From: a virus
Taxonomy: Duplodnaviria; Heunggongvirae; Uroviricota; Caudoviricetes
Direction: 5' to 3' (one strand)
DNA: 46,627 bases
IMG/VR virus record: IMGVR_UViG_2541047706_000005
Coordinates: 1 to 46,627 of that record
The notes under the pieces were generated by a model, which was given only the letters and a program-made list of their open reading frames with translations, made no database searches and was not told the DNA's origin. Below are positions 1 through 15,470 of the stretch, one piece after another (position 1 is the first letter of the stretch; each line of letters starts with the position of its first letter). The translations under genes were made by a program, and so were the position numbers.

Positions 1-1284
1 TTACTTCTTCGCCTCTGCAACCACTTTACTACCCACGCCGCGGTTATTGTATTCCCACATGCGGTTGTAGTTAGTGTCATTCAGATTGCGCTGTATTTCG
101 TCGTTATCATCTACGCTGCCGGTATTACCCGCAAACGGACGATTAGAGATCACCGCATCGGCCCACGGTTTAGCCGTGTTAAAACCTTCGTTGATGGCGC
201 TATCACGGATCACCACCTGACCGTTGGTATTGGCATCAACATCCAGCGAGCGGCCCAGTTGCGCCACACCATCACCGAAAGCATTGAAACGGCTGTTTAC
301 GGCGAGGAAACCGTAGTAAATGTTGGACAGCGTAGCCGGTGCAAACACATACGCTTCTTGCTGAGTACGTGAGTTCACCACGCGGAATTCGGTGTTATCG
401 AACACCACTGCGCCGCGACCAGAAACGATATCCACATCCCCTTCAATGTAGCTGTTGGTCACCAGCGTACGCGGCTGACGATTCGTTTCCAGACGGTTCT
501 GCACACCGCTGTTGGTGACAAAGAAGGTGTTCTGACGACCGAGAATGTTAACGTTGTTAATCTGTACCTGGTCACCATCAGTACGCAGTGCCACCGCCGG
601 ATGGTTACCTGCATCTACGCTATCGCCCAGCGTGTTTTCGATGGTCAGATTTTGCAGTTGCAGGCCATTGTTTTGTGACCAGAAGACCGCAGAGCAGAGA
701 ACACCGATACTGTCGCTGCGTTTGCTCTGGCAGCTATCGTACATATACCACGCTGGTTTACCTGGCATATATTTGCCGCGCGGGTTGACGTCGTGACGCC
801 AGTCGGCAGGGCTCATGCCACCATCAAGGGAAAGCCCAATCTTCACATCAATCGGTTTTTCACCTGTACCGTACAGAGTAATTCCACCCGGAGCGGCAGG
901 GACATATACCGTTCCCTGATACTCACCAGGCATCACGGCAATATACTGGCGCTTGTTGGTACGCTTGATAATTGCCGCATCTACCGCCGCCTGAATCGTG
1001 GTATGCGTTACACCTTGAGTGCCCGCCGGGCCGACAACAAAGTCAGGTTGCGCAGGCAGGGTAATCGGGGAAGGATTCCACGCTGCTGCACCTGGTGTCA
1101 GGGATGCAAAATAGTGTTGAGCATCGAAATTCTGCGCTTCTTTTGCCGACAGAATCGGGCGAGAAGAGGTACCAGGCGCGGTTTGATCAGAAGGACGTTG
1201 ATCGGGCGGGGTTGAGCTACAGGCGGTCAGCGTCACGCCAAAAGCCAATGCCAGCGCCAGACGGGAAACTGAAAATGTGTTCAC
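1..1284 (-). CDS. ybhC: Host pectinesterase-family outer-membrane lipoprotein (YbhC-like), flanking the prophage
   Basis: 427-aa ORF with signal peptide and lipobox (LTAC); recognised as YbhC-like from memory; sits immediately outside the att core. Confidence 0.75.
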   Translation of the reverse strand: MNTFSVSRLALALAFGVTLTACSSTPPDQRPSDQTAPGTSSRPILSAKEAQNFDAQHYFASLTPGAAAWNPSPITLPAQPDFVVGPAGTQGVTHTTIQAAVDAAIIKRTNKRQYIAVMPGEYQGTVYVPAAPGGITLYGTGEKPIDVKIGLSLDGGMSPADWRHDVNPRGKYMPGKPAWYMYDSCQSKRSDSIGVLCSAVFWSQNNGLQLQNLTIENTLGDSVDAGNHPAVALRTDGDQVQINNVNILGRQNTFFVTNSGVQNRLETNRQPRTLVTNSYIEGDVDIVSGRGAVVFDNTEFRVVNSRTQQEAYVFAPATLSNIYYGFLAVNSRFNAFGDGVAQLGRSLDVDANTNGQVVIRDSAINEGFNTAKPWADAVISNRPFAGNTGSVDDNDEIQRNLNDTNYNRMWEYNNRGVGSKVVAEAKK

Positions 1285-1418: not shown

Positions 1419-2489
1419 TTATTTGATTTCAATTTTGTCCCACTCCCTGCCTCTGTCATCACGATACTGTGATGCCATGGTGTCCGACTTATGCCCGAGA
1501 AGATGTTGAGCAAACTTATCGCTTATCTGCTTCTCATAGAGTCTTGCAGACAAACTGCGCAACTCGTGAAAGGTAGGCGGATCCCCTTCGAAGGAAAGAC
1601 CTGATGCTTTTCGTGCGCGCATAAAATACCTTGATACTGTGCCGGATGAAAGCGGTTCACGACGAGTAGATGCAATTATGGTTTCTCCGCCAAGAATCTT
1701 TTTGCATTTATCAAGTGTTTCCTTCATTGATATCCCGAGAGCATCAACATGCAATGCTGTTGGGATGGCAATTTTTACGCCTGTTTTGCTTTGCTCGACA
1801 TAAAGATATCCATCTACGATATCAGACCACTTCATTTCGCATAAATCACCAACTCGCTGCCCGGTAACAACAGCCAGTTCCATTGCAAGTCTTAGCCAAC
1901 ATGGTGATGATTCTGCTGCTTGATAAATTTTTAGGTATTCGTCAGCTGTAAGTCTTGATCTCCTTACCTCTGATTTTGCTGCGCGAGTGGCAGCGACCGG
2001 GTTTGTTGTTATATGGCCTTCAGCTATTGCCTCTCGGAATGCATCGCTCAGTGTTGATCTGATTAACTTGGCTGACGCCGCCTTGCCCTCGTCTATGTAT
2101 CCATTGAGCATTGCCGCAATTTCTTTTGTGGTGATGTCTTCAAGTGGAGCATCAGGCAGACCCCTCCTTATTGCTTTAATTTTGCTCATGTAATTTATGA
2201 GTGTCTTCTGCTTGATTCCTCTGCTGGCGAGGATTTTTTCGTAGCGATCAAGCCATGAATGTAACGTAACAGAATTATCACTGTTGATTCTCGCTGTCAG
2301 AGGCTTGTGTTTGTGTCCTGAAAATAACTCAATGTTGGCCTGTATAGCTTCAGTGATTGCGATTCGCCTGTCTCGGCCTAATCCGAACTCTTTACCCGTC
2401 CTTGGGTCCCTGTAGCAGTAATATCCATTGTTTCTTATATAAAGGTTAGGGGGTAAATCCCGGCGCTCATGACTTCGCCTTCTTCCCAT
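1419..2489 (-). CDS. int: Lambda integrase (tyrosine recombinase)
   Basis: 356-aa translation recognised as lambda Int (MGRRRSHERRDLPPNLYIRNNGYY...); overlaps xis as in lambda. Confidence 0.97.
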   Translation of the reverse strand: MGRRRSHERRDLPPNLYIRNNGYYCYRDPRTGKEFGLGRDRRIAITEAIQANIELFSGHKHKPLTARINSDNSVTLHSWLDRYEKILASRGIKQKTLINYMSKIKAIRRGLPDAPLEDITTKEIAAMLNGYIDEGKAASAKLIRSTLSDAFREAIAEGHITTNPVAATRAAKSEVRRSRLTADEYLKIYQAAESSPCWLRLAMELAVVTGQRVGDLCEMKWSDIVDGYLYVEQSKTGVKIAIPTALHVDALGISMKETLDKCKKILGGETIIASTRREPLSSGTVSRYFMRARKASGLSFEGDPPTFHELRSLSARLYEKQISDKFAQHLLGHKSDTMASQYRDDRGREWDKIEIK

Positions 2490-4988: not shown

Positions 4989-5443
4989 GCTGCACCTCCT
5001 TCGCGAAGCTGAGTGGCGAATTCATTAAGCTCAGCTAACAATTCATCAGCCCACTGAGCCGCTCTGCTTGCGTAGAGCATCTCCACACCCTGCGCCCGGA
5101 CTTCAGCCAGGAAAGCATCGGTGGCTGGGGTGTCTGATTGCAGAGACTTTGCGCGATAGTCATTCCACCCTCTTGCATACATGGGATTAACTTGCACTCC
5201 ATCTTTTACGCAATATGCCTGACCTCCACGGTTGATAACCTTGATTTCGTCCATAGCGCCAGACTTCAGCCCCGCATTCTCCGCCGCCAGCGCCGCGCAC
5301 TTGGCCTCCGCTTCAGCAAATTTACGCACCAGATATTCAGCGTTTGTTTCGTTAACCTTTAAATCACTTGGAATGCATTTACCTTTCAGAAATCCATCCA
5401 TCTCAATTAGTGACATTTGTTTCATTTTTTCCCACTCCGCCAC
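4985..5443 (-). CDS. Hypothetical protein (152 aa)
   Basis: ORF track; stop/start coupled with neighbours. Confidence 0.5.
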
Positions 5444-5916: not shown

Positions 5917-6300
5917 TTAGAAGGGAATTGAATCGTCGTATTCAGGATGATTTTGATGATTGCTACTTTGTTGCTGTTGGTTGTTTCCTGAAGTTGCAAA
6001 TCCAATCTTTGCATTCAGTAATTCAAGAGTGATTGATTGACCATTTTGCCCCTGATAAACATCAACCCTGATGTTTTCTCCGGTAATTTCTACAATGCCA
6101 CCTTCAACCAGAACGCTACGGTAGTAATCCGCTTGCGCTCCCGGCTTGGCAAATACAACGGCGCTGTAGTTTGTCCATTCTTTCTTTTTTGTCTGGCGAT
6201 CGTAATACTGAACGCCAGCACGGATGTTGAATCCGATATTTTCCCCGGCCTGAAACTCTCTTGCGGGCTTGTTTAGTCTTACAGTAATCGAATGTGCCAT
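5917..6300 (-). CDS. Phage single-stranded-DNA-binding (SSB-like) protein
   Basis: 127-aa product ending in an acidic tail ...EYDDSIPF, resembling the SSB C-terminal DDDIPF motif; adjacent to the recombinase. Confidence 0.65.
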   Translation of the reverse strand: MAHSITVRLNKPAREFQAGENIGFNIRAGVQYYDRQTKKKEWTNYSAVVFAKPGAQADYYRSVLVEGGIVEITGENIRVDVYQGQNGQSITLELLNAKIGFATSGNNQQQQSSNHQNHPEYDDSIPF

Positions 6301-6905
6301 TAAGCAGCAGCTCCTTCTAATTCGTCTCGTCTGATGTTGTAAACGTCCTGCGCTTTTTGCTGCTCAGGTGTGCCTTCGAGCATCTTCCACGCTTTGGCGA
6401 ACGCCTGTTTAAGCTCTTCTACGGTGTTTTTCTGCATTGCTGCGTCAGTGAATGCTTTTAGAACCTGTTCAGGTGTAGGTGATGGTTTTGATTGCTTTGC
6501 TGCTGCGTTCTGCTGATGTTTATGCTCGTCTGTATCTGCATCTTTCGCATCATCAATGCCGAACAAACCATTGAGGCAATACTTGCGTGCATAAGAGCTT
6601 GTAGCTCCAGTAACTTGTGCAGAATCCATTCCTTTCTTGCTTTCTTCCTCTCGTGCAAGAGCGGTTGCCGTATGGCTGTTTTCGCCATCGGTAATAGTTG
6701 CCGTGGCTTTCACGTAATACCGATCACCAATCAACACAACTTCATCGCTGATTGATAAAAACAGACCATTCAGTAACGGCTTAACGCCTTCAAGAATATC
6801 TTCGCAGCTTCTGTATTTATATTTACCGAATGAGTTGTACTGATTCTTTGGCGCGTTCAGATTCTCCTGAATAGCTGCCAGTCTTGCGTAAAATTCTTTG
6901 CTCAT
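6300..6905 (-). CDS. erf: Erf-family single-strand annealing recombinase
   Basis: N-terminus MSKEFYARLAAIQENLNAPKNQYNSFGKYKYRSCEDILEGVKP resembles P22 Erf as remembered; start taken at internal Met. Confidence 0.6.
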   Translation of the reverse strand: MSKEFYARLAAIQENLNAPKNQYNSFGKYKYRSCEDILEGVKPLLNGLFLSISDEVVLIGDRYYVKATATITDGENSHTATALAREEESKKGMDSAQVTGATSSYARKYCLNGLFGIDDAKDADTDEHKHQQNAAAKQSKPSPTPEQVLKAFTDAAMQKNTVEELKQAFAKAWKMLEGTPEQQKAQDVYNIRRDELEGAAA

Positions 6906-7006
6906 ATGATTGTTCTCAGAATGGACACGGCCCAAGGAAATAACGCTGATTTAATACTTCGACTCGGGACAAGTTAAGGCATACCCGCATTCCTTCGCGG
7001 TCGCCA

Positions 7007-7195
7007 TTATGTCGATACCAGAGAGCTTTCTGCGTGTACATGCGCCTCTGTAACTTGCTCTCCTTCACTGTGGTTGCAAGTGACATGAATATCTCCTTCG
7101 TTACCGATTAATTCTTTCATCTGACGAATGAATTCTTCGTCTGACCAGTTATCTGTAAAACTCATGGACGGCCTTGTTGTTTCAAAATATCCCAA
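7007..7195 (-). CDS. Small hypothetical protein (kil/gam position)
   Basis: ORF track; start uncertain. Confidence 0.35.
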   Translation of the reverse strand: MGYFETTRPSMSFTDNWSDEEFIRQMKELIGNEGDIHVTCNHSEGEQVTEAHVHAESSLVST

Positions 7196-7332
7196 AGCTT
7201 TTCGAGCAAACTTTTCATTCTTGGTTGTTTAAAGTCTGCTCCGGTTAAAATATTTTTTCGTGAATGCTGCACCGATAAAATCGGGTTGAAAGGGCGAACC
7301 GATGCCGCCCCTGCAATAGCGAACTGTTGCAT
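7162..7332 (-). CDS. cIII: CIII-like regulator (FtsH inhibitor family)
   Basis: Internal start MQQFAIAGAASV...LLEKLWDILKQQGRP resembles lambda CIII (MQYAIAG...). Confidence 0.55.
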   Translation of the reverse strand: MQQFAIAGAASVRPFNPILSVQHSRKNILTGADFKQPRMKSLLEKLWDILKQQGRP

Positions 7333-7395
7333 AGGATGCTCCTTCTGTTTGATTGCATAACGAAAACGCCTCAAGTGAAGCGTTATTGGTATGCA

Positions 7396-7423
7396 TATAA
7401 AAAGGCCCTCACACTGGAGGGCA
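7396..7423 (-). terminator. Leftward rho-independent terminator upstream of cIII (tL-like)
   Basis: Minus-strand hairpin gccctc/gagggc followed by U-tract; coordinates approximate. Confidence 0.5.
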
Positions 7424-7512
7424 AAGAAGATTTCCAATAATCAGAACAAGTCGGCTCCTGTTTAGTTACGAGCGACATTGCTCACATAGCAGACTCGTAA
7501 ATCTGCTATAGG

Positions 7513-7674
7513 TGCTTATTCGCATCGCATGACAACATCAAATTTTTCGAGATTACTTTGTCGCAACAATCCTTCTTCTACGCGATCAGCTTTTCTATAA
7601 TTATCAAATTCGAAATGTTTAATTACTTCTTTCGTTTCTCGCTCTATAACTTCAACGATGTATTTCTTATTCAT
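7513..7674 (-). CDS. Small hypothetical protein (about 53 aa)
   Basis: Hand-translated; ATG overlaps stop of the upstream 98-aa gene (TAATG). Confidence 0.3.
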
Positions 7675-7970
7675 TACTCATCACCTATGGCTTTTCTGAT
7701 TGCTGCTAGACCTTTATTAACAGCTCCATACCATTCTGGATATGTTGTCGTTGTTCTATTTTTGGATTGCTTAAGTAATAACTGAAGTGCTTCGAGAAGG
7801 TCAGGCGCTGCCGCTATTAGATTGGCATCTTCAATACATTGAACTTCCTCACAGATTGCAACATACGAACGCCAGCCAGCGCCATTTTTAAGTGAGCATG
7901 CCTGGATGATTTTAATCTCATCGCCATCCATCATTATTTCCCACTTACCTTCAGTACCTTTAAATTCCAT
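7674..7970 (-). CDS. Hypothetical protein (98 aa)
   Basis: ORF track; AT-rich. Confidence 0.45.
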   Translation of the reverse strand: MEFKGTEGKWEIMMDGDEIKIIQACSLKNGAGWRSYVAICEEVQCIEDANLIAAAPDLLEALQLLLKQSKNRTTTTYPEWYGAVNKGLAAIRKAIGDE

Positions 7971-8007
7971 GTTAGCCTCTGTTGTTTATACCAAAAATAA
8001 AGGCCGA

Positions 8008-8631
8008 CTATGCGGACTCGGAAGGAAGTCCAATCATCTTATTCAAATCTTCTACCCGTAAAGCAGGAAGTGCTGTACTTGCTTTGTCTGCTTCTTTTGG
8101 TAGCAATTCTTTGCTTTCAGGCCAAACTTCAATAAGTCGCTTAACTGTTGTGACTGAGTTCAAAGCAGCCCATACATTTGATTCGATATCCTTTTTCTTG
8201 GCTTCAAGTTTTTGTTGCAATGCGCAGATTTCATCAAACCTTTTTGTTATTTCGTGTTCTGCATCAAACATGCATTTATCTTTGGTTGGAGTAGGGAGCA
8301 ATATATCTTCGCCGTTGCCGTCTTTCCCATATGAATGCCATCCAACCCTTCTGCCAGATACAGTCAGATAAATTGAAGTAGAACGAACATCGTATGAGTA
8401 AAATGAACATCCCATCTTTTCAAGTTCTTCACTTATAGCTACTAACCTGGATGATAACTGATCCACTTCCTCAGTTTTCTTTTTACCGCCAAACGCAATA
8501 ACTCTGGCGTCAAGTGCAAGCTGGTTCTTTAACTTTGTTACTTCTTCAAGTTCAGTGAAAACCCCAGACTTAATTAAAGCGTTACGAGCGATTTTCTCTT
8601 TCATTCTCGTAGTTAAGCGGATTGATGACAT
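8008..8631 (-). CDS. Hypothetical accessory protein (about 207 aa) immediately downstream of N
   Basis: ORF-track frame 8008..8691, start taken at internal MSSIRLTT; no recognisable family. Confidence 0.5.
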   Translation of the reverse strand: MSSIRLTTRMKEKIARNALIKSGVFTELEEVTKLKNQLALDARVIAFGGKKKTEEVDQLSSRLVAISEELEKMGCSFYSYDVRSTSIYLTVSGRRVGWHSYGKDGNGEDILLPTPTKDKCMFDAEHEITKRFDEICALQQKLEAKKKDIESNVWAALNSVTTVKRLIEVWPESKELLPKEADKASTALPALRVEDLNKMIGLPSESA

Positions 8632-8692
8632 ATTAATTCCTCTCAAATAAGTGGTTTGCTGCCTAATTTTATTTTCTGGCGACCAACACAAG

Positions 8693-9076
8693 TCATCTTG
8701 CTGTCAGTTGTTTGGATTTCCGGTATCCTGCCGCGTAAAGAGCTACGTTCGGAAGACATACACCAGTTTCTGGTTGCTTATGTCCAAACTCATTCGCGTA
8801 CACAATGGCCGCTCGCTCCAGATTGCGTCTGTATTCTTTCTGTTGCCAGATCACGTCCTGTGCCATGAACTTAATTGGCTTAGCGTCTTCTATGCGCTCA
8901 GGCGTTTCGTGAGTACCTTTAGCCTGAATCTGCGCTCTGCTTAGAGTAGGGCGTTGTAATACTTCTGAACTTATTGCTTCTTCGCGGGCCAGTACGCCGT
9001 TAGCTAATGCCTTTGCCTTTAAACGCTCACGACGACGAGAACGTGAATTGCCTTTGAACTGAGTTCTGCGTGTCAT
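8693..9076 (-). CDS. N-type transcription antiterminator, P22 gene-24-like
   Basis: Arg-rich N-terminal motif (RRTQFKGNSRSRRRERLKAKA) and C-terminus LPNVALYAAGYRKSKQLTAR resembling P22 gp24; first gene after pL. Confidence 0.8.
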   Translation of the reverse strand: MTRRTQFKGNSRSRRRERLKAKALANGVLAREEAISSEVLQRPTLSRAQIQAKGTHETPERIEDAKPIKFMAQDVIWQQKEYRRNLERAAIVYANEFGHKQPETGVCLPNVALYAAGYRKSKQLTAR

Positions 9077-9241
9077 ATAGACCTCCTGATGAACTTTGGT
9101 GGTGTGGTAGGTGGGAGACCCATTTCGACCTGTTTCGGCCTACTTCAATTCGGCAATAGTCCCGCAGGCCTCGCCGCTTTACGTGCGACATATTCCCGTC
9201 CATGAACCCTTCACCACACCCCAAAGTTCACTTTGGTTATT

Positions 9242-9256
9242 GCGCTTTGTCAGCGC
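9242..9256 (-). promoter_or_regulatory. nutL boxB-like hairpin (P22 type)
   Basis: Minus-strand GCGCTGACAAAGCGC between pL and N; approximate coordinates. Confidence 0.55.
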
Positions 9257-9324
9257 CGTAGATTCATATTCGAATCGTTGTATATTCACCGCCCTGGTGA
9301 GTAGTGCGTCCTGCTGATGTGTTT

Positions 9325-9387
9325 AGTATCACCGCCAGTGGTATTTATGTCAACACCGCCAGAGATAATTTATCACCGCAGATGGTT
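9325..9387 (-). promoter_or_regulatory. Lambda oL1-oL2-oL3 operators with pL
   Basis: Three 17-bp operators matching lambda OL (tatcaccgccagtggta, caacaccgccagagata, tatcaccgcagatggtt); TTGACA/GATACT on minus strand. Confidence 0.9.
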
Positions 9388-9540
9388 ATCTGTATGTTTT
9401 TTATATAGATTTATTTTTTTGCAGGGGTGTGTGGCTTGGGAGGTGATCGAGAGATCTGAATTGCGATGTTTAGTGAGTTGTATCTATTAATTTTCAAATA
9501 AATACAATTGGTTATGTGTTTTGGGGCGAACGTGAGGCAA

Positions 9541-9565
9541 AGAAAACCCGGCACTGAGGCCGGGT
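9541..9565 (-). terminator. Rho-independent terminator ending the cI operon (tImm-like)
   Basis: Minus-strand stem cccggc/gccggg plus U-tract just after the small ORF stop; approximate coordinates. Confidence 0.6.
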
Positions 9566-9574
9566 GGGGTTTTG

Positions 9575-9745
9575 TTATTGGTGCATTTGGCAGACTGTAG
9601 TATCAGGTCCATAAGCCAAAGTAAAAACAGGCTTGTTGATCAATCCTTTGTTCTTTAATGATTGAATCATTTTACCTTGCTCGCTAACTTTTTGCTTGCT
9701 AAGTATTTCTGCCACTTGCTGTGTCAGTGATTTGTCTTTGCTCAT
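9575..9745 (-). CDS. Small ORF (about 56 aa) coupled to the upstream peptidase-like gene
   Basis: Hand-translated MSKDKSLTQQVAEILSKQK...; its ATG directly abuts the TAA of the 300-aa gene; below track cut-off. Confidence 0.4.
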   Translation of the reverse strand: MSKDKSLTQQVAEILSKQKVSEQGKMIQSLKNKGLINKPVFTLAYGPDTTVCQMHQ

Positions 9746-10648
9746 TTATGACTCACTTTGTTCTGAGAAGGGGAATGAAGACAGAACAAGAACCTGTCGA
9801 TTTGTCTTATACATGTATTCATTAATGACGTTGTGCAGATTTTTTAACGCCATGCTAAAATCTTTGTCGTATGTAAAGTCTTCTACTTTAATTCTTAAGT
9901 CATTGATAAGAGTATTTATTCCTATCGTTCTTCCGTGAGAATGCCACTTTCCGTTGTCACTAAGAGCGGTAGCGATCATTTTAGCTCTTGCTTCTTTTTC
10001 CCTCTTGGAAACTAGCTTTCCTCGTTTTGTGTTACCTTGATGAACCGTCCACTCTCTGAATTTATACTCTACAAGCCACTTCTTAAGCAAGTCTATTGAT
10101 AGCTCTCTGGCTTGCTCGTATCTCCTTAAGTGCGCAAGATCTAACTGACTAAGCATCATTAGTTCAGCTTGGGTAATGGTTCCTTCTCTGGATTTAGTAA
10201 TCATTTCTTCAACTTTATCAAGGTATCCCAAAGCAGGAACCCATTTACCGTCAGAGGATTGCACTTGAGGGTCAATGGGGCCTAATGAAGAAGCATAGTT
10301 CATGTAAATTTTATCTCCAGACATACACCATATTGTGCCTGCCGACATGGCCATATCTGGAATGATAAAATATACCTCTTGATAGAAATGCCTTGTAATT
10401 TCTACCATTTTTTCCACAGACTCAACAGAGCCACCATTTGTATTGAGTATAATAACTAGAAATCTATTGGTACGACTGTTAGCCATCTCCCCAATAGCCT
10501 CAAGTTTTGGTTGGTAAACTTCTTTTGACCATGGAAAGATACCACCGTAGTACGCTATGACGTCGCAGCTTGGGAAAAAGTTATTTTTAAATTGCTCTAA
10601 CTGCCAAGAAATGTATGTTTCTAGTGTTGAATCAAGATTTTGGCTCAT
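9746..10648 (-). CDS. ClpP-fold serine-peptidase-like protein (S49/SDH-type) in the rexAB position
   Basis: ILNTNGGSVES and PDMAMSAGTIWCMSGDKIYMNYASSLGPIDPQ align by eye with ClpP INSPGG and QAASMGA...PNSRVMIHQP blocks; directly downstream of cI on the same strand. Confidence 0.7.
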   Translation of the reverse strand: MSQNLDSTLETYISWQLEQFKNNFFPSCDVIAYYGGIFPWSKEVYQPKLEAIGEMANSRTNRFLVIILNTNGGSVESVEKMVEITRHFYQEVYFIIPDMAMSAGTIWCMSGDKIYMNYASSLGPIDPQVQSSDGKWVPALGYLDKVEEMITKSREGTITQAELMMLSQLDLAHLRRYEQARELSIDLLKKWLVEYKFREWTVHQGNTKRGKLVSKREKEARAKMIATALSDNGKWHSHGRTIGINTLINDLRIKVEDFTYDKDFSMALKNLHNVINEYMYKTNRQVLVLSSFPFSEQSES

Positions 10649-10720: not shown

Positions 10721-11437
<717 letters not shown>

Positions 11438-14525: not shown

Positions 14526-14946
14526 AATTCGATCTCCAGCACATCAGCAAAACGCTATTCACGCGGTACAGCAAATTCTTCCAGACCCAACCAAACCAAT
14601 CGTAGTAACCATTCAGGAACGCAACCGCAGCTTAGACCAAAACCGAAAGCTTTGGGCTTGCCTTGGTGACGTCTCTCGTCAGGTTGAATGGCATGGTCGC
14701 TGGCTGGATGCAGAAAGCTGGAAGTGTGTGTTTACCGCAGCATTAAAGCAGCAGGACGTTGTTCCTAACCTTGCCGGGAATGGCTTTGTGGTAATAGGCC
14801 AGTCAACCAGCAGGATGCGTGTAGGCGAATTTGCGGAGCTATTAGAGCTTATACAGGCATTCGGTACAGAGCGTGGCGTTAAGTGGTCAGACGAAGCGAG
14901 ACTGGCTCTGGAGTGGAAAGCGAGATGGGGAGATCGGGCTGCATGA
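14506..14946 (+). CDS. ninB: NinB recombination protein
   Basis: 146-aa translation recognised as lambda NinB (MKKLTFEIRSPAHQQNAIHAVQQILPDPTKP...). Confidence 0.95.
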   Translation: MKKLTFEIRSPAHQQNAIHAVQQILPDPTKPIVVTIQERNRSLDQNRKLWACLGDVSRQVEWHGRWLDAESWKCVFTAALKQQDVVPNLAGNGFVVIGQSTSRMRVGEFAELLELIQAFGTERGVKWSDEARLALEWKARWGDRAA

Positions 14947-15470
14947 CTATCAAATCAAATACGCCAGCACACGACAAGGACTGCTGGCAAACGCCGCTTT
15001 GGCTTTTTGATGCACTGGATATTGAGTTTGGATTCTGGCTGGATTCGGCAGCGAGCGACAAAAATGCTCTGTGTGCTCACTGGCTAACTGAGGCCGACGA
15101 CGCGCTCAATTCTGAGTGGGTAAGCCACGGTGCAATCTGGAATAACCCACCGTACAGCAATATCAGGCCGTGGGTGGAAAAAGCCGCTGAGCAGTGCATA
15201 CAACAGCGACAGACGGTAGTGATGCTTGTGCCAGAGGATATGTCAGTCGGATGGTTCAGCAAGGCTCTGGAGAGTGTCGACGAAGTTCGCATTATCACTG
15301 ATGGACGGATTAATTTTATCGAACCATCGACAGGGCTGGAGAAGAAGGGAAACAGCAAAGGCTCCATGCTGCTGATTTGGCGACCGTTCATCAGTCCTCG
15401 ACGGATGTTTACTACCGTATCCAAAGCGGCATTGATGGCGATCGGGCAGAGCGTCAGGAGGGCGGCATGA
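14943..15470 (+). CDS. Phage DNA N6-adenine methyltransferase (Dam-like)
   Basis: NPPY motif (IWNNPPYS); start taken at ATG overlapping ninB stop; occupies the ninC position. Confidence 0.8.

Follow-up and report, generated by a model that had tools for sequence, protein, structure and literature searches.

Three accessory genes, one of them of the Nmad5 family, downstream of N and ahead of the first leftward terminator in a lambda-like prophage

Organization of the cassette

The stretch of DNA analysed here (hereafter the window) is the 46,627-nucleotide (nt) IMG/VR record IMGVR_UViG_2541047706_000005, a lambda-like prophage of the Caudoviricetes having integrase, O, NinB, Q, holin and portal genes, and the subject of this study is a cassette of three leftward genes (7513-8631) lying between the antiterminator gene N and a tL-like terminator in front of cIII. 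This arrangement had been described in an earlier note on the same DNA, and its coordinates were confirmed, together with the AT-rich character of the segment: the cassette has 39.0% G+C, compared to 48.4% in N and 50.2% in the whole window. Counting from N, and all on the minus strand, it comprises a 207-amino-acid (aa) gene encoding a stand-alone Nmad5-family protein (8631-8008; PF18757, phrog_1965), a 98-aa gene related to P22 orf78 and BTP1_034 (7970-7674; phrog_1273, with PF27050 in its homologues) and a 52-aa gene, the last before the terminator (7674-7516; phrog_6949). The sizes of the first two agree with the earlier note, while the third, put there at about 53 aa, has 52 aa, and the three families replace its statement that none could be recognised. 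The identity and anatomy of the cassette can be regarded as settled with near certainty.

The open reading frame (ORF) of 207 aa starts with ATG, having GAGGAATTAAT and a GAGGA ribosome-binding site in front, and is separated from the stop codon of N by 61 nt; the longest form of this frame begins with a TTG codon at 8691. N itself (8693-9076, minus strand) encodes 127 aa and matches PF25694 (2e-15) and phrog_271 (6e-38). The start of the 98-aa ORF is preceded by AGAGGCTAAC, and the ATG of the 52-aa gene overlaps the TAA stop of the 98-aa gene as TAATG. An antisense ORF of 129 aa (7982-8371, plus strand), wholly contained in the Nmad5 gene, was taken as a by-product of that gene.

Downstream of the cassette, tandem hairpins resembling intrinsic terminators (7365-7422, minus strand) form the analogue of tL and end the N-proximal transcription unit. 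The first (7422-7405) consists of GCCCTC-N6-GAGGGC followed by CTTTTTAT, and the second is located at 7384-7365; the first gene past them is cIII (7162-7332, minus strand; phrog_550, 1e-22). Between the stop codon of the 52-aa gene and the terminator there is a structured 3' untranslated stretch (7423-7515, minus strand), where folding gives two further stable hairpins, e.g., AUAGCAGA-N8-UCUGCUAU, which may serve for processing or to stabilise the RNA. The non-coding region 7340-7520 (181 nt) has a minimum free energy of -58.1 kcal/mol, with z = -4.9 relative to shuffled sequences, and a scan of 6800-9800 against Rfam gave only a chance-level match (E 0.28, 26 bits against a gathering score of 81).

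Judging from their sequences, the three ORFs are genuine conserved genes and not chance ORFs, because of their strong Pfam and PHROGs profile matches (phrog_1965, 1e-83, for the 207-aa protein; phrog_1273, 3e-30, for the 98-aa protein; phrog_6949, 3e-40, for the 52-aa protein) and, for the 52-aa gene, because of a ratio of nonsynonymous to synonymous divergence (dN/dS) of about 0.02. No meaningful match to any of the three was found in NCBIfam, and weak Pfam matches to YfjL_C, P4Ha_N and FlaG, being below the cut-offs, were disregarded.

Predicted expression and physical properties

Regarding transcription, a pL-like promoter, TTGACA-17-GATACT, is located at 9325-9353 (minus strand), as identified by a consensus match only. 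The intervals from N to the 207-aa gene and from there to the 98-aa gene hold no terminator-like hairpin, the folds of both being no better than those of shuffled sequences, and the first intrinsic terminator downstream of pL is the hairpin at 7422-7405. Lambda has its first terminator, tL1, directly after N, whereas in the window the first leftward terminator comes after the cassette. As there is no intrinsic terminator between pL or N and the cassette, the three genes are probably made together with N, on an immediate-early pL transcript that would be synthesised before antitermination is needed and would be silent in the lysogen, where cI represses pL. In addition, a promoter search found no sigma-70-like site on the minus strand between pL and 7159, and the canonical boxA CGCTCTTW was not found between pL and N.

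In its predicted timing, with expression from the first transcript after infection, the cassette is comparable to gene 0.3 of T7, whose product Ocr is an anti-restriction factor, though the analogy is purely functional. Unlike Ocr, which mimics DNA and is strongly acidic, the cassette proteins, with isoelectric points (pI) of 7.65 (207 aa), 4.85 (98 aa) and 5.83 (52 aa), have neither a mimic-like charge nor homology to it. The three proteins are soluble, with maximal 19-residue Kyte-Doolittle means of 0.61, 1.11 and -0.17, respectively, and a hydropathy scan found no membrane segment in any of them. Nmad5, which is neutral and soluble, thus qualifies neither as a DNA mimic nor as a membrane-bound exclusion protein.

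The Nmad5-family protein

Residues 4-203 of the 207-aa protein align with positions 1-206 of the 206 in the Nmad5 profile PF18757 (E 3.7e-72, 243.2 bits against a cut-off of 27), which spans the protein as its only domain and is present in 71 of 71 homologues. In RefSeq, Escherichia coli alleles with 100% DNA identity are named "Nmad5 family putative nucleotide modification protein", and the gene occurs at 90% DNA identity or more in 211 of 5426 complete E. coli genomes. Other examples of PF18757 are gp15 of Pseudomonas phage YuA, orfs of HK542 and HK244 and gp037 of mEp235, the latter being a 99.5% identical protein in the same place after N; in HK542, HK244, PhiR12 phages and Stx1a phages, too, Nmad5 always stands directly after N. 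A profile search over 1.84 billion representatives gave 2294 clusters at 50% identity, and among the best 150 representatives no fusion to an enzyme domain was found, all being stand-alone proteins of about 200 aa.

The AlphaFold2 (AF2) model of the protein is a confident one (pLDDT 85.8). Three long helices at the N-terminus come first; a small β-sheet at residues 86-120 and another long helix at 127-158 then lead on to short helices and a tail of low confidence. Compared to PDB structures, the model gave only helical-bundle noise, and sequence and profile searches against PDB chains found nothing under E 0.19. When Foldseek was applied against BFVD, the best matches were exclusively phage proteins annotated as Nmad5 or similar to it, the lowest E being 9.5e-13 and the highest TM-score 0.76.

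In an alignment of 58 members with 23-57% identity, only E172 and N197 are invariant, while T162, L166, W170, P171, L176, P178, L196 and G201 are conserved in at least 90%, and I14, A18, G48 and G93 are further conserved positions. Most of these residues belong to a C-terminal motif at residues 159-203, S-V-T-T-x-K-x-L-x-x-W-P-E ... L-P-A-x-x-V-x-x-L-N-x-x-I-G-L-P. No catalytic-type residue cluster was found in this alignment, a conservation pattern that is typical, though not proof, of a fold with an interaction motif rather than an active site.

The name Nmad5 was reportedly derived by Iyer et al. in 2013 from an association with modification genes. In YuA/M6-like phages, the gene is indeed located within a thymidine-hypermodification cassette, beside a hydroxymethylase, an aGPT-Pplase and a kinase (PMC9476957); in contrast, the operon of the window is devoid of modification genes around Nmad5. 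The neighbours of 25 non-redundant Nmad5 loci (at most 60% identity) were surveyed, taking three genes on each side and 146 proteins altogether. The recurrent ones were DUF2800 (a PD-(D/E)XK nuclease), the Enc34 single-stranded DNA (ssDNA)-binding protein, DNA polymerase A, helicases, AAA_24/DUF669, VapE, the DnaG zinc ribbon, YqaJ, RusA and repressors of the helix-turn-helix (HTH)/S24 type, while modification-type neighbours (MT-A70, DUF4406 and DUF4326, once each among the 146) occurred at only one to three of the 25 loci, and none was found in the pL operon of the window or of the related lambdoid loci examined. The early position of Nmad5 is conserved beyond E. coli, the gene being the first past the S24 repressor in prophages of Providencia and Serratia; in Dhillonvirus it is divergently oriented and located among head genes. 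No experiment on a nucleotide-modification activity of Nmad5 was found in the literature searched, nor anything about function for XkdD, orf78, mEp235, HK542 or PhiR12, and the DefensePredictor paper mentions an "NMAD" domain without stating which one.

According to Yamashita et al. 2025 (PMC11846954), one K-to-E substitution in Nmad5 is enough for Dhillonviruses to escape the Tmn defence, whereas deletion of nmad5 gives no escape; the gene could not be cloned owing to an apparent toxicity, and the protein is called a DNA-modification enzyme by annotation only. The Nmad5 of the Dhillonviruses SM_A8 and SMS22 differs from that of the window, as it has at least 254 aa with extra inserts, compared to a stand-alone protein of 207 aa. 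K216 of SM_A8, the residue changed in the escape mutant K216E, aligns with R165 of the window protein, within T-V-K-R-L-I-E-V-W-P-E, the most conserved motif of the family, and this column holds K or R in 43 of the 58 members. Therefore, the most conserved surface of the family appears to matter for Tmn. According to a 2026 preprint, Tmn recognises RIIB of T2, another early protein.

A further aspect of the family is its interruption in phages carrying the Stx2a toxin. There are 48 matching records of Stx2a-converting phages, and in those listed Nmad5 is split into residues 1-37 and 34-207. In the one record examined (LC616058; L100), an IS3-family insertion sequence (IS) at 1104-2317, with transposase ORFs of 108 and 296 aa, splits the gene at about codon 35, leaving remnants at 530-988 and about 2230-2340. 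We take this element to be IS629-like. Nmad5 is therefore not essential for those phages.

The 98-aa and 52-aa genes

Homologues of the 98-aa protein at 86-94% identity and of similar length carry PF27050 according to precomputed tables, and the protein of the window is thus placed in that family through its homologues and not by a direct score. RefSeq uses the name "XkdD/Y8K6 family phage-associated protein" for a 98% DNA-identical allele and for a 100-aa variant. From its N-terminus, the protein comprises a variable β-domain, then the conserved AAAPDLLEAL helix and, past a hypervariable loop, the conserved tail ...AI(S/R)KA(L/I)G(E/D)E, the motifs being located at residues 47-63 (the helix (D/E)-D-A-x-L-I-A-A-A-P-D-L-L-E-A-L) and 89-98 (...A-I-x-K-A-L-G-E-E). 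Among 33 sequences of the family, E47, D48, L51, I52, A54, A55, L58, L59, L62, I91 and K93 are invariant; the comparison of sequences shows a conserved two-helix scaffold with a variable N-terminal domain and a variable loop.

Its relatives in P22-like phages are BTP1_034 (ST104 ORF18), with 43% identity over 96 residues (blastp 2e-20 in a small database), and P22 orf78, with 37.5% identity over the C-terminal 48 residues (blastp 5e-5, also in a small database). Both share with the 98-aa gene the AAAP(D/E)LLEAL helix, the ...AI(S/G)KALG(E/K)E tail and the genomic slot, but differ from it in the N-terminal β-domain and in the loop between the helices; they are uncharacterised early-left genes located after ral and before gene 17 or cIII. 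Lytic myophages of Klebsiella, Cronobacter and Proteus (Vequintavirinae; e.g., L181, 1504-1761) encode 85-aa proteins in which the N-terminal domain of the window protein (residues 4-52) stands alone, with an identity of about 50%. This domain is therefore a mobile one, common to temperate and virulent phages.

The 52-aa protein is under strong constraint but belongs to no Pfam family. Its homologues, 80-100% identical, occur at the same position in E. coli, Atlantibacter and Cronobacter prophages, those of Atlantibacter and Cronobacter having 80-88% identity, and the comparison with the Atlantibacter copy gave pN 0.067 and pS 0.74, with synonymous sites saturated, from which the dN/dS of about 0.02 was obtained. 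The gene is always the last before the terminator, and its start always overlaps the stop of a gene ending in ...A(L/I)GE(E/A), a tail with which P22 orf78 and BTP1_034 end as well. This upstream place is taken by the 98-aa gene or by otherwise unrelated genes of 78 aa and of 53 aa, the latter rich in cysteine, with junctions at 7674 in the window and at 5001 in both L013 and L015. Because the 52-aa gene is joined to unrelated upstream genes, the linkage looks like recombination at a conserved junction, with an exchange of modules, rather than a functional pair.

Variation of the cargo slot

The contents of the slot were surveyed in 80 IMG/VR loci with 95-100% identical Nmad5. In 56 of them, the terminator hairpin follows 137 nt past the Nmad5 stop, while about 16 have instead an insert of 0.46-0.64 kb after Nmad5. 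These inserts hold a gene of the 98-aa family, with differing N-terminal domains (10 loci), a 156-aa gene (7 loci) or, in the remainder, other small genes, and the 52-aa gene accompanies the 98-aa family in only 2 of the 10 cases. The 156-aa cargo gene (MTKSWSVPFPESETEH...) is located 67 nt past the Nmad5 stop in L040, L041, L052, L053, L078, L082 and L089. On the other side, the type of N varies, and genes inserted between N and Nmad5 encode Ral (3 of the 80 loci), a 75-aa protein, a 120-aa protein and zinc-ribbon-like proteins of 88-92 aa (CxxC...H). Loci with such upstream cargo, among it the 75-aa gene (MMNQTYIPSCLRNLPKQK...), include L025, L042 and L096.

The FREC5 prophage of E. coli has an N-type gene followed in turn by ral, Nmad5, the 98-aa gene and cIII, and BTP1 has N, ral and the 98-aa homologue; no ral is present in the window between N and the terminator. 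The full arrangement of three genes is rare, being found in phage APC_JM3.2 and in about six complete E. coli genomes. As ral and sieB of lambda and P22 occupy the same operon segment, past N and before cIII, the comparison with the ral/sieB slot made in the earlier note is borne out by ral adjoining the cassette genes in FREC5 and BTP1 and among the surveyed loci. With ral beside cassette genes in related prophages, and with cargo that differs from one near-identical phage to the next, the comparisons support a reading of the N-to-terminator segment as a swappable cargo slot of the ral/sieB type.

The cassette proteins themselves show no sequence similarity to the known occupants of that slot. 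None of the three has a blastp match to P22 Ral at E up to 10, and no Ral family appears among the Pfam matches. The 98-aa and 52-aa genes were also considered as relatives of P22 gp17; the sole alignment obtained, of the 52-aa protein with 22% identity and E 0.07 in a database of eleven sequences, was not significant.

The surrounding prophage

Besides N and cIII, the left operon contains a P22-type erf (6300-6935, minus strand) and an SSB-like (single-stranded DNA-binding) gene, in the same leftward operon as Nmad5, and a lambda-type cI is located at 10721-11434 (minus strand). The sole DNA-modification gene seen in the window encodes a Dam-family DNA N6-adenine methyltransferase (14883-15470, plus strand; PF05869, 7e-65), which adjoins ninB in the rightward operon (nin region), 6 kb from Nmad5; a link between the two is conceivable, though not suggested by their position.

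The space between cI and pL, where lambda has rexAB and BTP1 has bstA (st313-td), is filled by a 300-aa homologue of ClpP-fold "SDH-type" serine proteases (9746-10648, minus strand; PF01972, 1.6e-10; phrog_11747, 2e-99), with no match in PADLOC, and by a 56-aa ORF (9575-9745, minus strand). Both are candidates for a defence or moron function expressed in the lysogen. At the left end, an ORF with a pectinesterase-family domain (1-1284, minus strand; PF01095, 1e-13) is followed by another at 1419-2489 (minus strand), probably the lambda-type integrase detected in the scan of the whole window. The pectinesterase ORF presumably resembles ybhC beside attB-lambda, and together with the integrase it probably marks the junction between host and prophage.

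Possible functions and alternative explanations

Our best guess, held at somewhat less than even confidence, is that the three genes encode early non-enzymatic proteins that bind host or defence components and serve in counter-defence or in the take-over of the cell. Nmad5 would most likely be a binding protein without enzymatic activity. At an early point of the lytic cycle, a partner from the host or the phage would be contacted through its conserved C-terminal module, T-x-K-[K/R]-L-[L/I]-E-x-W-P-E ... L-P-A-x-x-V-x-x-L-N-x-x-I-G-L-P. Such a contact would serve take-over or counter-defence, with Tmn being sensitive to the same surface of Nmad5, and the 98-aa and 52-aa genes would likely be further early modulators of the same kind. 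The anti-restriction function suggested in the earlier note is hence possible, as is an anti-defence role in general, although Ral similarity, PADLOC matches and DNA-mimic acidity were all negative.

Several observations weigh against this proposal. Rho-dependent termination between N and the cassette could still separate its transcription from that of N, and even without an obvious catalytic constellation a new type of enzyme is conceivable, E172 and N197 being invariant. Nmad5 is dispensable in many Stx2a phages. The Nmad5 of Yuavirus stands inside a thymidine-hypermodification cassette, and the phage of the window also has a Dam-type methyltransferase, though in another operon. In PADLOC-DB 2.0, at a limit of E 0.1, the 207-aa and 52-aa proteins had no match and the 98-aa protein only a chance-level one (PDC-M33B, E 0.053).

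The families around Nmad5 can be read differently, as those of replication and recombination are, with the HTH/S24 repressors, the commonest neighbours at the 25 diverse loci, which would give Nmad5 an auxiliary part in the replication or recombination of phage DNA or in protecting its ends. Its association with DUF2800, the Enc34 ssDNA-binding protein and PolA in a Providencia prophage, its place directly ahead of replication protein O in Vibrio phage Athena1 and the operon shared with erf and the SSB-like gene in the window are consistent with this role. However, the module beside Nmad5 changes from phage to phage (Erf, RecT, PolA, O/P) without any constant partner, the gene is disrupted by an IS in about 48 Stx2a records and lies among head genes in Dhillonvirus, and neighbourhood alone does not discriminate, as early regions hold counter-defence genes too; we consider this role rather unlikely. 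It is less probable still that Nmad5 takes part in nucleotide or DNA-base modification, possibly with the Dam-type methyltransferase of the phage or with a host enzyme, as the origin of its name, the YuA/M6 cassette (PMC9476957), the Dam-family gene of the window and the single MT-A70 and DUF4406 neighbours could indicate. Against such a participation, modification-type neighbours are confined to one to three of the 25 loci and absent from the lambdoid operons examined, the Dam gene is 6 kb away, and neither a catalytic-type cluster nor an enzyme fold nor an enzyme fusion was seen.

The TAATG overlap, and the occurrence of the 98-aa and 52-aa genes together in mEp043, APC_JM3.2 and 64 E. coli genomes, would fit a self-contained two-component module, e.g., a toxin-antitoxin-like pair or an inhibitor with its partner. 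But the 52-aa gene is likewise coupled to the 78-aa and 53-aa genes, which share only the ...ALGEE tail, the 98-aa family occurs without it in 8 of the 10 Nmad5-linked cases and in BTP1, and no toxin, antitoxin or defence profile matches either, making such a module very unlikely. Finally, the cassette can hardly be expected to protect the lysogen as SieB or Rex do, by exclusion of superinfecting phages or by anti-phage defence, although sieB is located in the same region of lambda and P22, the low G+C is moron-like and near-identical phages differ in their cargo. In contrast to the membrane protein SieB, the three cassette proteins are soluble, with hydropathy maxima of about 1.1 or less and no membrane segments; moreover, they have no promoter-like site of their own and depend on pL, which cI represses, the PADLOC match with E 0.053, at chance level, was the best obtained, and neither P22 gp17 nor Ral resembles them. 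The exclusion function that the earlier note had also put forward is thus disfavoured. Homology to housekeeping phage proteins was not encountered, the three belonging to catalogued phage families.

Extending our preferred proposal of early binding proteins, and as a doubtful generalisation of it, "Nmad5" may be a misnomer. The family would comprise widespread early proteins that are specific to phages, lack enzymatic activity and engage, through their conserved C-terminal surface (T-x-K-[K/R]-L...W-P-E), a host membrane or defence hub, e.g., the Tmn/KAP NTPase. In temperate enterobacterial phages, it would then act as a counter-defence or take-over factor made from the first transcript, and the P22-orf78-like neighbour would be a scaffold showing variable domains for similar ends.

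Significance

Known contents of the lambdoid segment from N to the terminator, namely ral, sieB and gene 17, have in the past proved to be anti-restriction or exclusion functions, and in P22-like phages the majority of the early-left genes have yet to be assigned a function (PMC8022706). The cassette is ordinary accessory cargo and no new kind of element, identical sequences being already public under their family names. If Nmad5 is an early host- or defence-binding protein and not a modification enzyme, its database name misleads annotators, and a lambda-type system would offer an easy genetic handle on the sensing of phages by Tmn. The value of the locus thus lies mainly in the doubtful name of Nmad5 and in a link of R165 to Tmn that can be tested, a modest lead for work on phage defence.

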